From positions 1-34,628 of the IMG/VR virus record IMGVR_UViG_2558860472_000005: a stretch of 34,628 nucleotides of DNA; one strand, 5' to 3'. Origin of the DNA: a virus (Duplodnaviria; Heunggongvirae; Uroviricota; Caudoviricetes). The notes beneath the pieces are model-generated. The model had not been told where the DNA came from. It made no database searches and saw nothing but the letters and a program-made list of their open reading frames with translations. How positions within the stretch are numbered: position 1 is the stretch's first letter; every line of letters starts with the position of its first letter. The position numbers were made by a program, and so were the translations under genes. This document shows, one piece after another, positions 10,869 through 29,360 of the stretch.

Positions 10869-10885
10869 TTTTGTGGAGAAAGTTG

Positions 10886-11257
10886 ATGCGTGATATTCAA
10901 ATGGTTCTTGAACGTTGGGGTGCATGGGTGGCAAATAATCACGAGGATGTCACTTGGTCGTCTATTGCTGCAGGATTTAAAGGACTAATCCCTTCAAAAG
11001 TAAAATCCCGCCCGCAATGTTGTGACGATGACGCGATGATCATTTGTGGGTGTATGGCTCGCCTGAAAAAGAACAACAGCGATTTGCACGATTTATTAGT
11101 GGATTACTATGTAGGAGGTATGACATTTATGGCGCTTGCCCGTAAACATGGGCGTTCTGATTGCTGGGTTGGGCGTTTATTGCAAAAAGCGGAAGGAGTA
11201 GTTGATGGTATGTTGATAATGCTAGATATTGAATTGGAAATGGAACGTAAAATTTAG
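10886..11257 (+). CDS. Late-gene antiterminator Q-like protein
   Basis: ATG 10886 with SD GGAGA; ERWGAWV and [21 protein letters not shown] motifs resemble Q family (from memory); immediately upstream of lysis region. Confidence 0.65.
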
Positions 11258-11486
11258 TTATGTTATGAATAAATAAATGCTAATGATTTTTGTAAGATAG
11301 CTCATTTTATGTCCATAGGTGATGTATGCATTAATATGATTAATTTGTCTCCTTATAAAAATAAGATTATGTAAATAATAACAAAGGGTGACATTATTAA
11401 GTGTTGCTTTTTCTTAGTAAGTTGTTATCCTACTTAAGGTTGAATGATATTGTATCGAATAAAGTTGCTTATATAGAATTATTTTT

Positions 11487-12014
11487 ATGTTATGGCTTAT
11501 TGAGTTAGTTAATAGGATGATTGAATCAATGCTTTCAAATGTAATTTTAAGTGGAGCTATGTCCACGTTATTGGCTGCATTTCTAATTTTTGTGTTTAAG
11601 GAGTATATAAAAAGGCCACCTAATTTTTCAGGGGTGTTTGAGATCGAGTGTAAAACGCTAAAATCATCATATAATTCATATGTAAACCTAACTACATTCT
11701 ATACATTAGTGTTGATTTGTGATAATAACACTATAGAAGGACATATTGAAAAAATAAAAGATATCGAAAATGATGGGTATGAAAGAAAATATATTGGCGT
11801 GCATCGCAATATTGGCGATGTCAATGGTGTAATTAAAAGAAATTACTTAAGACCTAACCATGCTTCGTTGAATATAAAAATGCATGGTGATAAGAGGGAT
11901 TATACTATTATGCTATATTTTAAGAAGGTGAATACGAAAAATATGAAAGGAACTTTTTTATCTACTGCTGCAGATTCTTCTGGAGATGTTAAGTGGCAGC
12001 GAAAAAATTTTTAA
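11487..12014 (+). CDS. Hypothetical membrane-anchored protein (AT-rich cargo, first gene of pair)
   Basis: 175 aa; N-terminal TM helix (VILSGAMSTLLAAFLIFVF); very AT-rich; 22-nt overlap with the next gene; no family recognised. Confidence 0.5.
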   Translation: MLWLIELVNRMIESMLSNVILSGAMSTLLAAFLIFVFKEYIKRPPNFSGVFEIECKTLKSSYNSYVNLTTFYTLVLICDNNTIEGHIEKIKDIENDGYERKYIGVHRNIGDVNGVIKRNYLRPNHASLNIKMHGDKRDYTIMLYFKKVNTKNMKGTFLSTAADSSGDVKWQRKNF

Positions 12015-12637
12015 TTTATTTACTGTCGTTGCCATATTTAATAATGGCTTCGATTATCATAAAGCTTAAAGTTAAAAGTATAATTGATGATTATGAGAAA
12101 TGTACTACTTATATTTACTGTAACTCGAAGAAATATAATAACATTTCTCCTGTTATGATTGATATATTAAGGTTAGCAGAGGATCATCGACAATTATTGC
12201 ATAGAGGGATTGACCCCATTGCAATCATTAGAACTTTTTATCTGAGGATATTTAAAAATATACACCAAGGAGCGAGCACTATAGAACAGCAGTTTGTGAG
12301 AACTATAACTAAAAGATACGAAAAAACAATACGTAGAAAGATAAGAGAGCAGATATTGGCTATATTGATTAGAAATGTATCAACTCCAGATGATATATGT
12401 AAGTGTTATCTTTCTTGTTGTTACTATGGCTATGGAACTTATGGGATAGATAATCTTTTAAAAAAGAAACAAAATATCAGTGATTTTGATATTGTTGCAA
12501 TGATTAAATATCCATTCAGGGGAGAAGTTGTTTCAGTTACAGAGGAACGATTTAAACATAGGTCGCTCTATCTTTCCACTTTATATAAATTAAATGCACA
12601 AAGGGATATGATTTTTTTGCGAAAATATAGTGGGTGA
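11993..12637 (+). CDS. GT51 (peptidoglycan glycosyltransferase/transglycosylase)-like domain protein, membrane-anchored
   Basis: 214 aa from GTG; hydrophobic N-terminus; four GT51 motifs in order and native-like spacing: EDHRQLLHRGID, GASTIEQQ, RRKIREQ, YLSCCYYGYGTYG; both putative catalytic Glu present. Confidence 0.7.
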   Translation: MAAKKFLIYLLSLPYLIMASIIIKLKVKSIIDDYEKCTTYIYCNSKKYNNISPVMIDILRLAEDHRQLLHRGIDPIAIIRTFYLRIFKNIHQGASTIEQQFVRTITKRYEKTIRRKIREQILAILIRNVSTPDDICKCYLSCCYYGYGTYGIDNLLKKKQNISDFDIVAMIKYPFRGEVVSVTEERFKHRSLYLSTLYKLNAQRDMIFLRKYSG

Positions 12638-12834
12638 TTATGTTAAGTGTATTTTATTATGTGTCAAAAAGTTTAGTCATCTCTGCTTAATGTATAATCG
12701 TGAATGTTTTTATTCAGATTTTATGCATGTCAAGTTGATGAGTGCCGTCGACATAAGATATGGGGATAATGAATAGTTTACAATCGTAAATAATAGAATA
12801 TCCTGTTAAAAGTGGTTACTTCTCCACGCAGCTT

Positions 12835-25702: not shown

Positions 25703-27538
25703 ATGGCTGAATTTGAGCTTAAGGCGTTGATCACCGGTGTCGACAGGCTTTCTCCCGCGCTGTCGAAAATGCAAAAGAAAATCCGGGGATTTAAACGCCA
25801 GGCGGAAGAAGCGTCACAGGGTGGGCTGGCGCTTGGTGGCGGACTGGCAGCGGGGCTGACGCTTTCCCTGAAATCTTATGCCGATCAGGAAAACGCCGCT
25901 ACCGGGCTGAAAGTCGCCATGATGGATGCGAACGGCGAGGTTGGAAAGAGCTTTCAGGACATCAATAAACTGGCTATTGGCCTGGGTAACCAGCTACCCG
26001 GTACAACGGCTGATTTCCAGAACATGATGCAGATGCTGGTGCGTCAGGGGATCCCGGCAGAAAACATTCTGGGTGGTGTGGGTAAAGCGACAGCTTATCT
26101 TGCGGTACAACTGAAAAAAACACCGGAAGCGGCTGCCGAGTTTGCCGCAAAGATGCAGGATGCTACCGGAACGGCCTCAGAAGACATGATGGGGCTGTTC
26201 GACACAATTCAGAAGGCGTTTTATCTGGGCGTTGACGACACCAACATGCTGTCATTCTTCACTAAAACCAGCTCTGTTCTGAAGATGGTGAATAAGGACG
26301 GTCTTCAGGCTGCACAGAGTCTTGCCCCCATCAGTGTCATGATGGATCAGATGGGGATGAACGGGGAGTCGGCAGGTAATGCCCTGCGAAAAGTTATCCA
26401 GTCCGGATTAAGCGTTAAGAAAATCAGGGACGTCAATAAAATCATGGCCCGCCAGAAACTCGGGGTACAGCTCGATTTTACTGATGGCAAAGGGAGTTTT
26501 GGTGGTCTTGATAACATGTTTAAGCAACTGGCAAAGTTGCGAAAACTGACCGACGTTAAGCGAACAGGCGTACTTAAGGCAATATTTGGTGATGATGCCG
26601 AAACCCTTCAGGTGGTCAATGCACTAATCGATAAAGGAAAGGATGGCTACGATCAGATCCAGCAGAAGATGAATAAACAGGCCAGCCTGAATAAACGTGT
26701 TCAGGCACAGCTTGGTACGCTGTCCAACCTGTGGGAGGCAATGACGGGGACCGCAACTAACGGCCTTGCGGCTATTGGCGGCGCATTTTCTGGTGACGCC
26801 AAAAATATCACGCAATGGCTGGGGGAGTTGGGGGAAAATTTCACGAAGTTTGCGGATGAAAATCCCCGGGTTATTCGCGGCGTCGTCGGGCTTGCTGCCG
26901 GTCTTGCGGTTCTGAAACTGGGATTGATGGGCGTGGGCAGTGCCATCAGTATTGTCAGCAGGATTATGTCGATGACGCCGATTGGCGTGATTGCGACGGC
27001 GATAGCCCTGGCTGCGGGATTAATTATCACTAACTGGGATGTTGTCGGACCTTATTTCAAGAAGCTCTGGGAAACCATTAGTCCTTATTTTGAGGCTGGC
27101 TGGGAACTTCTGAAGAAGGTTTTTGCCTGGTCGCCGCTGGGGATGGTGATCAATAACTGGGGACCGGTTGTTAAGTGGTTTCAGGATATGTGGGATAAGC
27201 TGAAGCCGATTATTGAATGGTTTACCGACAGTTCCGGTGACACGGTCGATGCCATTAACTCGGCGCAGTGGGGCGCGGGTGCTTATGATGCTTATGGGAC
27301 GGGAATACCGGCGCGGGGATACACACCTTATCCGGCGGTAGATCTGGCTCAGGCAAACAACGCCTCCGATGCCACAGGCCCGAATCCCTTCATGATTAAC
27401 AAAGCTTCTGCGCCAAAAGTTGACGGTGAGATCAAGGTCTCTTTTGTGAATTCGCCTCCGGGTATGCGGGTTATGGAAACGCGATCCAGCGGTTTTGATA
27501 TGAATCACGATGTTGGCTATACGCATATTGGCAGATGA
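25703..27538 (+). CDS. Tail tape measure protein
   Basis: 611 aa; Ala/Gly-rich with hydrophobic central segments and C-terminal Trp-rich region; follows chaperones. Confidence 0.85.
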   Translation: MAEFELKALITGVDRLSPALSKMQKKIRGFKRQAEEASQGGLALGGGLAAGLTLSLKSYADQENAATGLKVAMMDANGEVGKSFQDINKLAIGLGNQLPGTTADFQNMMQMLVRQGIPAENILGGVGKATAYLAVQLKKTPEAAAEFAAKMQDATGTASEDMMGLFDTIQKAFYLGVDDTNMLSFFTKTSSVLKMVNKDGLQAAQSLAPISVMMDQMGMNGESAGNALRKVIQSGLSVKKIRDVNKIMARQKLGVQLDFTDGKGSFGGLDNMFKQLAKLRKLTDVKRTGVLKAIFGDDAETLQVVNALIDKGKDGYDQIQQKMNKQASLNKRVQAQLGTLSNLWEAMTGTATNGLAAIGGAFSGDAKNITQWLGELGENFTKFADENPRVIRGVVGLAAGLAVLKLGLMGVGSAISIVSRIMSMTPIGVIATAIALAAGLIITNWDVVGPYFKKLWETISPYFEAGWELLKKVFAWSPLGMVINNWGPVVKWFQDMWDKLKPIIEWFTDSSGDTVDAINSAQWGAGAYDAYGTGIPARGYTPYPAVDLAQANNASDATGPNPFMINKASAPKVDGEIKVSFVNSPPGMRVMETRSSGFDMNHDVGYTHIGR

Positions 27539-27590
27539 CGGAACCAGATATAATTTGTCTTTAAGTTTGTTATCAACTGAAGGGAAATCT

Positions 27591-27968
27591 ATGGGTCTGT
27601 TACATGCCATTATAGGTAATGCCGGTGAAATTAATGCATCAGATGCACAACAGGAATTAGGGGCTGTTTTAGGTGAGGGAGAAAATGTCGAACTTGCCTA
27701 TAAACTCATTCGTGACCAAATTATTCTGACTAACAGAAGGTTAATTTTTATTGATAAGCAGGGTGTCACAGGGAAAAAAGTAGAGTATCGTTCGATTCCT
27801 TATAAATCTGTGACAAACTTTTCTATTGAAACCGCCGGGCATCTTGATCTTGATGCTGAAATGAAGATCTGGATTTCTGGTATTGCAGAACCGATAAAAA
27901 AACAGTTCAGTAAAGGAGCAAACATTTATAAATTGCAGGCTCATCTGGCTCAAAAAATAGCAGGGTAA
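27591..27968 (+). CDS. Bacterial PH-domain (bPH_1/YjqA-like) protein, AT-rich cargo in tail operon
   Basis: 125 aa from ATG 27591 with SD AGGGA; LTNRRLIFIDKQGVTGKKVEYRSIPYKSVTNFSIETAG...LDLDAEMKIWISG matches bPH family (from memory); AT-rich; own terminator. Confidence 0.6.
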   Translation: MGLLHAIIGNAGEINASDAQQELGAVLGEGENVELAYKLIRDQIILTNRRLIFIDKQGVTGKKVEYRSIPYKSVTNFSIETAGHLDLDAEMKIWISGIAEPIKKQFSKGANIYKLQAHLAQKIAG

Positions 27969-27994
27969 ACCTTACATTAATTTATGTCTTTCAT

Positions 27995-28016
27995 GCCCAC
28001 TTCGGTGGGCTTTTTT
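27995..28016 (+). terminator. Rho-independent terminator after the PH-domain gene
   Basis: Stem GCCCAC / GTGGGC with TTCG loop followed by TTTTTT; lies just upstream of the next tail gene start. Confidence 0.6.
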
Positions 28017-28031
28017 ATATCCGGAGTTTAT

Positions 28032-29360
28032 ATGACGTGGAAAGACAGGCTTCAGGACGCGTCATTTCGCGGTGTGCCGTTTAAGGTTGAAGAAGAAAGT
28101 GCGGGAACAGGTCGCCGTGTGGAAACACACGAATATCCGAACCGCGACAAACCCTATACCGAAGATCTGGGAAAAGTCACTTTCCGCCCGTCCATCACGG
28201 CTTATGTGGTGGGCGATGACTGCTTTGACCAGCGCGATCGCCTGATTGACGCGCTGAATAAACCCGGTCCCGGCACGCTTGTCCATCCGACTTACGGTGA
28301 GCTGAAAGTCTGTGTTGACGGGGAAGTTCGGGTCAGCACATCGAAGAGTGAAGGGCGTATTGTCCGCTTTGACCTGAAGTTTGTCGAAGCGGGAGAACTC
28401 TCTTACCCCACTTCAGGTGTGGCGACGGCGCAGACGCTGATGTCATCCTGTTCTGCACTGGATGACTGCATCAGTGACAGTTTCAGTGGTTTCAGTATCG
28501 ATGGCGTGGCGGATTTTGTGCAGAACGACGTCGTCGGTAATGCCAGCACAATGCTTGGGTATGTTTCTGATGCGATGAAAGTGGTGGATTCTGTCGTATC
28601 GGATGCCGCCAGACTGTTGCAGGGGGATATCTCGGTACTTCTGCCTCCGCCATCGTCAGGCAAAAACTTCGTTGAGCAGGTGCAGAAAATGTGGCGTACC
28701 GGGAAACGCCTTTATGGTAACGCCAGCGACCTGGTCACCATGATCAAGACGCTTTCCGGTGTCAGCCTTGGCAGCGATCTGCAACCGCGCGGCGTCTGGA
28801 AAACGGTCAGTAAAACCACCGCCAAGGCTACGCAGCAGCGTAACGTGGTTGCCAGCACCCTTCGTACGACCGCAATCAGCGAAGCGGCGTATGCCATCAC
28901 CCGATTGCCTGCGCCAACAACTTCCGCGGTGATGCAGAATGCCGCAGTGGGGCAGTCAACAACACCCGCGCAGAGCACCGGCTGGCCTTCCGTCACGCAT
29001 CCGGCACTGAACAATGCACCGGCGGTGAAAAACACGGTTGACCTGCCAACGTGGGAAGAACTGACTGACATTCGCGACACACTGAATACGGCAATTGATA
29101 AGGAGTTGTCCCGTACAACCAGTGATGCGCTGTTTCTGGCACTGCGCCGGGTGAAAGCAGATCTGAATGCGGATATCAACACGCGCCTTGAACAGTCTGC
29201 ACGGATCATTCAGCGCACGCCGGATGAGGTCTTACCCGCGCTGGTGCTGGCGGCGACCTGGTTTGATAACGCGGCGCGTGACGCGGACATTATCCGGCGT
29301 AATGCCATTACGCATCCCGGCTTTGTGCCGGTGATCCCTCTGAAGGTGCCAGTGCAATGA
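28032..29360 (+). CDS. Mu N-like DNA circularisation protein
   Basis: ATG 28032 with SD GGAG (track start 27984 would include the terminator hairpin); follows tape measure as in Mu. Confidence 0.7.
   Translation: MTWKDRLQDASFRGVPFKVEEESAGTGRRVETHEYPNRDKPYTEDLGKVTFRPSITAYVVGDDCFDQRDRLIDALNKPGPGTLVHPTYGELKVCVDGEVRVSTSKSEGRIVRFDLKFVEAGELSYPTSGVATAQTLMSSCSALDDCISDSFSGFSIDGVADFVQNDVVGNASTMLGYVSDAMKVVDSVVSDAARLLQGDISVLLPPPSSGKNFVEQVQKMWRTGKRLYGNASDLVTMIKTLSGVSLGSDLQPRGVWKTVSKTTAKATQQRNVVASTLRTTAISEAAYAITRLPAPTTSAVMQNAAVGQSTTPAQSTGWPSVTHPALNNAPAVKNTVDLPTWEELTDIRDTLNTAIDKELSRTTSDALFLALRRVKADLNADINTRLEQSARIIQRTPDEVLPALVLAATWFDNAARDADIIRRNAITHPGFVPVIPLKVPVQ

Follow-up and report, generated by a model that had tools for sequence, protein, structure and literature searches.

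We analyzed a small AT-rich gene that interrupts the tail operon of an SfV/SfII/SfI-like prophage, contained in a 34,628-nt stretch of DNA (IMG/VR record IMGVR_UViG_2558860472_000005 at its full length, hereafter the window). On balance, the evidence favored reading this gene, which we call bPH, as a moron: an optional, horizontally acquired cassette occupying a slot between the tape measure (TMP) and Mu N-like (N) genes, whose soluble PHb1 product would be made in the lysogen and whose transcription would be joined by Q-dependent read-through after induction. The window combines a lambdoid early region with a Mu-like contractile tail, and its head and tail genes were 96-98% identical to those of the Shigella phages SfII, SfV and SfI. 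The features on which the analysis rests are collected in Table 1. A search of the entire window with Rfam at the gathering threshold gave no match, and no tRNA genes were found.

Table 1. Coordinates of the bPH cassette, its borders and related features in the window
Feature	Position	Strand	Remarks
Q antiterminator gene	10871..11257	+	Pfam Phage_antitermQ, E 2.9e-51
Tail tape measure gene	25703..27538	+	Pfam PhageMin_Tail, E 1.5e-26; left border of the slot
Candidate sigma-70 promoter	27528..27554	+	TTGGCA 27528-33, 15-nt spacer, TATAAT 27549-54; predicted
Segment missing from SfII, SfV and SfI	27539..27973	+	~433-435 nt; -10, leader, RBS and bPH ORF
bPH ribosome-binding site	27579..27585	+	GAAGGGA; ends 5 nt before the ATG; read from the sequence
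bPH cargo gene	27591..27968	+	ATG 27591, TAA 27966-27968; 125 aa, 13.7 kDa, pI 8
3'UTR stretch common to the SfII/SfV empty allele	27974..27994	+	~60-65% identity, a weak similarity
Intrinsic terminator	27995..28016	+	GCCCAC-TTCG-GTGGGC + T6; stem-loop 27995-28010, T-run 28011-16
Mu N-like DNA circulation/baseplate gene with RBS	28023..29360	+	DNA_circ_N, E 3.2e-34; right border of the slot

The original prediction had described an AT-rich gene for a 125-aa bacterial PH-domain-like protein, inserted between the tape measure and Mu N-like genes and followed by a clean terminator about 15 nt ahead of the next tail gene. The coordinates and description of the gene were correct, both neighbors had Pfam hits, and the T-run of the terminator ended at 28016 with the ATG of N at 28032. 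When the HMM check for bPH_1 that had been proposed was carried out, the bPH product matched PF08000 (bPH_1, formerly DUF1696) at full length, with a score of 163.2 bits against a cutoff of 27.7 bits (E 3.1e-48); the match spanned residues 3-122 of the protein and positions 2-121/122 of the profile. The protein also hit phrog_7115 (E 6e-54), a family with no assigned function. The GC content was 0.36-0.37 across 27550-28000 and 0.38 in the gene itself, as compared to 0.52-0.58 on either side, so that bPH has the deviant base composition of a moron (0.36-0.38 against 0.52-0.58). On the right border, GGAG at 28023-26 precedes the ATG of N at 28032, and this start context was kept in all relatives and alleles. 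A mechanical ORF call placed the start of N at 27984, which would overlap the hairpin; it was rejected in favor of the ATG at 28032, which is conserved in relatives.

Comparison with relatives lacking the insertion, as had been suggested, located its boundaries. In a local blastn of the window against SfII, homology (97.5%) stopped at 27534 and restarted at 27996, leaving 461 nt in the window where SfII has 28 nt (span 2901 against 2468 nt). A stretch of ~433 bp is missing at precisely this site from SfII, SfV and SfI and from the majority of E. coli prophages that have this tail module. Only the promoter -10, leader, RBS and ORF differ from SfII, while ~21 nt at the 3'UTR end and the hairpin are common to both. 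The 3'UTR similarity comes from a by-eye comparison of the junction sequences, ACATTAATTTATGTCTTTCATG against AAATTAATCTGTTAATGAGT. Since the hairpin and these ~21 nt are shared, the junction is compatible with either origin of the empty allele, which may be ancestral or may be a deletion scar of the bPH cassette; either fits. No direct repeats flanking the cassette were found, which indicates that there was no target-site duplication. The borders carry an inverted repeat of 10 nt (27544-53 / 28015-24), which is not kept in Edwardsiella cassettes and is probably a chance occurrence; with direct repeats lacking as well, a transposon-like insertion was rejected.

We also determined how often the slot carries bPH. 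The TMP-N region was present in 1,099 of 5,426 complete E. coli genomes and the bPH cassette in 28, in all cases at this slot, so that ~97% of E. coli prophages sharing this tail module are without the gene; four of the 28 copies were split by IS1. Most relatives have no gene between the tape measure and N, which sets bPH apart from the core Mu-like tail and baseplate genes, and its absence from close relatives at the same position is as expected of a moron. The claim that bPH is cargo rather than a core tail gene was thus upheld, the gene being missing from SfII, SfV and SfI and from 61 of the 80 closest loci.

The same slot holds at least four further unrelated low-GC genes. Their products are a signal-peptide-bearing protein of 164 aa (85 E. 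coli genomes), a 225-aa protein with a lipoprotein-like N-terminus (55 genomes), a TM-anchored OB-fold (tRNA_anti-like) protein encoded on the minus strand (79 genomes) and a 176-aa TM-anchored protein. The slot was empty in 61 of the 80 closest N-gene loci of IMG/VR; the 176-aa gene occupied it in 12, the 164-aa gene in six and the OB-fold gene in one. About one quarter of slot copies are occupied by one of at least five alternative genes, with bPH the rarest allele (28 genomes). None of the five slot genes matched a family of known function. The alternation of unrelated low-GC cargoes in one slot marks it as a moron hot spot, and since the minus-strand allele is not expressible from the late transcript, the slot hosts autonomous, independently transcribed units. 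A leader apparently shared by the bPH and 164-aa cassettes (ATAATTTGT..CTTTAAGT..TGAAGGGA) was equaled in 32 of 2,000 shuffles (p ~0.016) and was dropped as too weak; no such similarity was found in the other slot cassettes.

The original prediction had credited bPH with its own terminator. The hairpin has a predicted free energy of -11.8 kcal/mol and is the only strong terminator-like site on the plus strand of the 20-kb late region, in which raw terminator-pattern counts were no higher than in shuffled sequence. A terminator does lie immediately downstream of the gene, as in morons, though the hairpin is also found in the empty allele and is not cargo-borne. Every plus-strand allele, the empty one included, had a GC hairpin whose T-run stops 14-16 nt short of the start codon of N, and a homologous hairpin at the same distance from N was found in all 61 empty alleles sampled. 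The attribution to bPH therefore failed: the terminator belongs to the slot, and in itself it provides no evidence for an autonomous unit. The empty-allele hairpin (CCCAC-TCCG-GTGGG-A-T6) is marked as a terminator in the SfII GenBank record; the 225-aa allele has CCCGC-TTCG-GCGGG, the 176-aa allele GCCACCT-...-AGGTGGC and the 164-aa allele a longer stem, CCCGCCA...TGGCGGG. When ten alleles were aligned, 90% of cells were paired, as compared to 32-51% in slid controls, and two stem pairs had compensatory changes; the covariation score was reached by none of 500 shuffles. Conserved pairing and covariation argue that the hairpin is a selected, constitutive part of the junction between TMP and N in SfV-type phages rather than something peculiar to the cargo. 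In SfIV the tape measure gene differs, and TMP and N are joined across only 24 nt without the hairpin.

Late genes of SfV-like phages are driven by Q antitermination (PMC3851460), and read-through of the terminator in lytic growth is expected because the prophage carries Q. The Edwardsiella phage EPP-1, which has bPH and an identical hairpin, forms clear plaques and tailed particles, and SfII, SfV and SfI are isolated phages that bear the homologous hairpin. Virions are thus made despite an identical or homologous hairpin, which does not block the downstream tail genes lytically. For transcription in the lysogen, TTGGCA/TATAAT (Table 1) appears to be the sole plausible sigma-70 promoter of the cassette. 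Our consensus scan missed this candidate because its spacer has the suboptimal length of 15 nt instead of 16-18 nt. The E. coli-type and Edwardsiella-type bPH cassettes have reached saturation at synonymous sites (pS 0.72-0.76), and the sequence between conserved blocks has diverged, yet the blocks TATTGGCAGAT, GATATAA, TATCAA and GGAAGGG, the last covering the RBS, are invariant between the two types. The last codons of the tape measure gene (..I-G-R-stop) include the -35-like TTGGCA, and part of its conservation could be due to coding constraint since it lies inside coding sequence.

The nearest relatives of bPH were found in Edwardsiella (88-91% aa identity), and those whose flanks were examined occupied the same position in SfV-like phages or prophages. 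Between the E. coli and Edwardsiella lineages, bPH has diverged at synonymous sites to the same extent as the backbone tube and chaperone genes, and its pN/pS was 0.07-0.085, relative to 0.15 for the tail tube and 0.20 for the chaperone; the ORF was intact at 125 aa in both lineages. Backbone-like synonymous divergence together with low pN/pS indicates that the cassette has long been part of this phage group and is strongly constrained by purifying selection; it is neither a chance recent acquisition nor a remnant in decay. An E. hoshinae prophage had flanks 97-99% identical to the window and yet an Edwardsiella-type bPH (89%), a mismatch that points to allele exchange by recombination. The next homologues, at 72% identity and below, are stand-alone chromosomal genes of Enterobacterales, Vibrionaceae, Firmicutes, Bacteroidota and other phyla. 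Around 50 such loci (150 ORFs) we found no conserved partner, the 173 Pfam families having at most five members each, and no defense-gene enrichment or defense island, the few PADLOC hits being mostly GTPase cross-matches. The top neighbor family count (five) reflected lineage-specific EngA synteny.

The original prediction had also labeled the protein membrane-associated, a label that does not suit this subfamily. We found no hydrophobic or TM segment and no signal peptide in bPH (maximum 19-aa Kyte-Doolittle hydropathy 0.58), and PHb1 proteins are soluble, dome-shaped pentameric (C5) rings with a mostly acidic site formed by two adjacent protomers (PMC2817789). The paper describing these structures makes a case against the proteins binding membranes directly and favors a protein partner (PMC2817789). 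A phmmer search against the PDB matched the Shewanella PHb1 structures 3DCX and 3HSA at full length (E ~1e-39), with identity of ~60% as counted in the printed alignment and 46-51% by Foldseek. In the AF2 model (pLDDT 82), the strands fall within residues 33-107 and residues 112-124 form a helix, and the model superposed on 3DCX with a TM-score of 0.81-0.87; bPH thus fits the group 1 PHb1 pattern of a single ~125-aa PH domain, a seven-stranded sandwich with a C-terminal helix, without a membrane segment. All eight residues of the PHb1(sl) acidic site are retained (D42, D55, Q57, K63, E80, D86, D88 and E90), and in a 37-sequence alignment seven of them were invariant and E90 nearly so. From this likeness we infer a pentameric ring for bPH. 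The Shewanella proteins (3DCX, 3HSA; Xu et al. 2010) share its architecture, its eight site residues and the lack of a membrane segment, and differ in being encoded by stand-alone chromosomal genes, whereas bPH sits in a prophage tail-operon cassette. The Foldseek hits in the PDB were limited to structural-genomics entries of 2007-2009 and remote PH domains of eukaryotes, none of them a complex that would inform on function.

Clues to function came from other phages that carry the family. Phage PHb1 genes were noted in the lysogeny modules of ul36 and Min1 by Xu et al. 2010 (PMC2817789). We found that the Lactococcus ul36 gene lies on the repressor strand in the order int-ORF124-...-cI, that a Vibrio 186-like phage has the order cI-PHb1-SIR2-int, with a SIR2 protein matching pAgo-associated/PDC-S65 defense models, and that Peptostreptococcus-type prophages have HTH_3 - SLFN/AlbA_2 - bPH - integrase, again on the repressor strand. 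These lysogeny-module genes, together with the envelope-type sister cargoes of the slot, make a lysogen-expressed accessory role most likely. The lysogen would probably benefit by excluding or tolerating other phages, or by being protected against envelope stress. The PADLOC-DB v2 defense HMMs gave no hit to bPH at E <= 1, NCBIfam gave none either, and the 164-aa, 225-aa and OB-fold slot cargoes (the set scanned, without the 176-aa protein) had no PADLOC match. Unlike its four sister cargoes and known Sie proteins, bPH lacks envelope targeting. Our literature search found no functional study of PF08000/DUF1696/PHb1; in the SNIPE paper, PH domains come up only where some homologues carry them at the N-terminus for membrane targeting, and the svsR/NC-SV paper was discarded as a source on bPH because it concerns another prophage.

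We weighed the moron reading against the view that bPH is a passenger of the late operon, with no working promoter, expressed only from the Q-antiterminated late mRNA and serving a lytic role in anti-defense, host takeover or assembly. The gene points the same way as the late operon and lies close to the tape measure gene, its promoter-like element is weak (15-nt spacer, unflagged by the scan), the terminator is a backbone feature that occurs without cargo, and the clear-plaque phage EPP-1 keeps bPH, all of which would suit a passenger. Such a role is harder to reconcile with the other contents of the slot, among them a gene in minus orientation and several for envelope proteins of the kind typically seen in lysogenic conversion. 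It also fits poorly with three other lineages of temperate phages, in which PHb1 belongs to the lysogeny module and lies on the same strand as the repressor, and with the non-coding -10 block GATATAA, which is invariant across highly diverged cassettes. We consider it rather unlikely.

It is very improbable that bPH is a core gene encoding a structural or assembly component of the tail. Its location between two tail genes is what one would expect of such a component, all four SfV-like Edwardsiella loci recovered have it, and it has diverged at synonymous sites as much as the backbone; the Edwardsiella loci are, however, a biased sample, because they were found through a bPH search. Set against this are the many phages and prophages described above that lack the gene, the 50-72% identical homologues that stand alone in the chromosomes of many phyla, and the five-fold ring of PHb1 as compared to the three- or six-fold symmetry of tails. 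We give equally little credence to a neutral hitch-hiker or decaying remnant without current function. Its rarity among the slot alleles and the IS1 interruptions (4/28) could be taken as signs of decay, but the low pN/pS at saturated synonymous sites and an ORF that is intact in both lineages, with all conserved-site residues kept, speak for continued selection.

Under the moron reading, host RNA polymerase in the lysogen would start at the weak sigma-70 promoter of the cassette and transcribe bPH alone, and the unmodified polymerase would stop at the slot terminator, leaving the baseplate genes silent. Once the prophage is induced, polymerase that has been modified by Q and arrives from the late promoter would pass the terminator, so that the tail genes are expressed and bPH is co-transcribed as a passenger. 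The protein most likely forms a cytoplasmic, pentameric, dome-shaped ring like its Shewanella homologues, and this ring would act through a protein partner at the conserved acidic inter-subunit site. A broader and quite doubtful proposal is that soluble PHb1 rings constitute a recurrent class of prophage immunity factors in Gram-negative and Gram-positive hosts, expressed in the lysogen and acting in cytoplasmic superinfection exclusion. The pentameric dome would then cap or sequester a component on the cytoplasmic face that incoming phages need (for example a host partner, or the DNA conduit formed by tape measure and inner membrane), and exclusion would take place from inside the cell without an envelope protein. 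A secondary and likewise tentative element is that the TMP-N junction of SfV-like phages may be a dedicated cassette dock, in which the conserved terminator insulates the baseplate genes and forms a fixed right border at which cargoes are exchanged. PHb1 structures have been solved since 2008, and bPH is a Gram-negative, tail-operon case of the recurring association of PHb1 (DUF1696) with temperate phages; an E. coli prophage copy with natural presence, absence and IS-disrupted alleles offers a tractable route to PHb1 function.

Temperate phages and satellites have accessory and defense hot spots, such as those of P2/P4. The TMP-N slot resembles these in being a fixed site between conserved genes at which unrelated low-GC cargo alternates among near-identical phages, and differs in that the cargoes scanned (bPH and three others) match no PADLOC defense model. 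We regard it as a newly delineated polymorphic cargo site in very common E. coli/Shigella SfV-like prophages. The lysogeny-module PHb1 proteins (ul36 ORF124, Microbacterium Min1 ORF77, the Vibrio 186-like and Peptostreptococcus-type proteins, and bIL285 ORF2) belong to the same family (36-58% identity) and are likewise accessory genes of temperate phages; they lie in the repressor-integrase module, a region expressed in lysogens, whereas bPH lies in the late tail operon. In the accessible sections of the source, bIL285 ORF2 ('sie285') is a TM-PHb fusion with an N-terminal membrane region at the lactococcal Sie position, and those sections report exclusion activity for sie309 and sie312 only, neither shown to be PHb (PMC6127208).

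The arrangement had been called unusual, an assessment that does not stand, since a promoter/terminator-bounded low-GC gene in a late operon is the definition of a moron (PMC3594210); the architecture of bPH, with its candidate promoter, is that of a classical moron and is ordinary for temperate phages. The first-described moron, HK97 gp15, itself adjoins the tape measure gene (PMC3594210). Like bPH, gp15 (Juhala/Hendrix 2000; Cumby et al. 2012) is a small gene of deviant GC beside the tape measure gene in the tail operon of a lambdoid temperate coliphage, is bounded by a promoter (a candidate one in bPH) and a terminator, is missing from close relatives and has cellular homologues outside prophages. 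The two differ in that gp15 is an inner-membrane (YebO-like) protein with demonstrated superinfection exclusion whereas bPH is a soluble PH-domain protein, so that bPH does not share the membrane or envelope nature of Sie-type proteins (HK97 gp15, SieA and lactococcal Sie). They also differ in position, gp15 lying upstream of the tape measure gene and bPH downstream, with a terminator that is found in cargo-free relatives as well.

The junction between the tape measure gene (TMP) and the Mu N-like gene (N) of SfV-like prophages was found to be a polymorphic cargo slot, in which we identified at least five alternative low-GC genes. Besides bPH, these encode a signal-peptide protein of 164 aa, a lipoprotein-like protein of 225 aa and two TM-anchored proteins, one of 176 aa and the other, on the minus strand, with an OB fold. 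Four of the five cargoes show envelope targeting. IS1, IS4 and IS5 insertions occur in the same slot. Among the 80 closest relatives, ~24% of the slots carried a cargo. Three of the four non-bPH cargoes (the 164-aa, 225-aa and OB-fold proteins) were scanned against the PADLOC models and gave no match.

Cargo-free SfII- and SfV-type phages retain, midway through the late operon, a strong intrinsic terminator between TMP and N. It was present in all 61 of the empty alleles (61/61), and its stem carries compensatory changes across alleles. In the empty slot it is possible that the terminator insulates the baseplate genes in lysogens; stabilization of the mRNA 3' end and service as a docking border for cassettes are likewise possible roles. 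A reading frame of N opened at the longest-ORF ATG would cross the terminator hairpin. The GenBank records of SfII and SfV place the start of N at this same ATG. A conserved RBS and start lie further downstream, in agreement with the RefSeq PGAP annotations, and the starts placed upstream of them probably arose as artefacts of annotation.

Coordinates of the features in the window and in the compared loci (L-numbers; positions count within each locus)
Feature	Window	Compared loci
TMP–N cargo slot	27539-28031	L003, L004, L068-L070, L096
Terminator between TMP and N	27995-28016	L001 2552-2590; L091-L170
Longest-ORF start of N (ATG 27984) and following stretch	27984-28031	L001 2558
Conserved RBS and start of N	28023-28034
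TMP, with its E. coli HH107 counterpart	25703-27538	L002 704-2659
E. hoshinae NBRC 105699 prophage		L011 1810-8843
EPP-1 TMP–bPH gap		L005 3849-4000
E. coli TUM18781 pMTY18781-3		L008
Second low-GC island	11100-12700
175-aa protein	11487-12014
214-aa Transgly protein	11993-12637
Vibrio phage lysogeny operon		L072 2740-6902
Peptostreptococcus-type prophages		L086-L090

In the prophage of Edwardsiella hoshinae NBRC 105699, the tail genes flanking the slot were 97-99% identical to those of the window at the amino acid level, that is, E. coli-like, while bPH was only 89% and the tape measure protein 86% identical. This difference indicates a localised recombination by which the 3' end of TMP and the cargo allele were exchanged between genera. 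In Edwardsiella phage EPP-1, the annotated TMP ends ~150 nt upstream of the bPH start, yet an in-frame relic of the E. coli-type TMP C-terminus (..HDAEHTSIGR-stop) can still be recognised in the gap, and it includes the -35-like TTGGCA. Possible explanations are a premature stop, a frameshift and a mis-annotation.

Two further E. coli carriers of bPH were noted. The HH107 prophage is near-identical to the window apart from its TMP, which exceeds that of the window by 120 nt (1956 vs 1836 nt). The tape measure is thus polymorphic in length, and the longer gene would predict a longer tail. In strain TUM18781, the bPH-carrying SfV-like element pMTY18781-3 has been annotated not as a chromosomal prophage but as a circular plasmid of 70 kb. 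It may represent a phage-plasmid or an excised form, or else have arisen as an assembly artefact.

The SfII sequence that separates the Q antiterminator from the lysis genes is replaced in the window by a second low-GC island (GC 0.29-0.31). Two proteins are encoded there: one of 175 aa, which belongs to no known family and has a hydrophobic N-terminus, and one of 214 aa with a transglycosylase (Transgly) domain. The island is probably another moron in the classic post-Q position.

PHb1 genes were also found in the lysogeny modules of other phages. Vibrio phage 10N.286.45.B12_PE001 has an operon, lying wholly on one strand, of cI repressor, PHb1 (45% identical), SIR2-domain protein and integrase in this order, in which the 612-aa SIR2-domain protein matches the short-pAgo-associated SIR2 and PDC-S65 models. 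Peptostreptococcus-type prophages from IMG/VR share a conserved order of HTH_3 repressor, 510-aa Schlafen AlbA_2/HATPase_c_4 protein, bPH (57-58% identical), 178-aa unknown protein and tyrosine integrase; one variant has a DUF6414 protein in place of neighbouring genes, and another an extra RNase_T-BRCT exonuclease.
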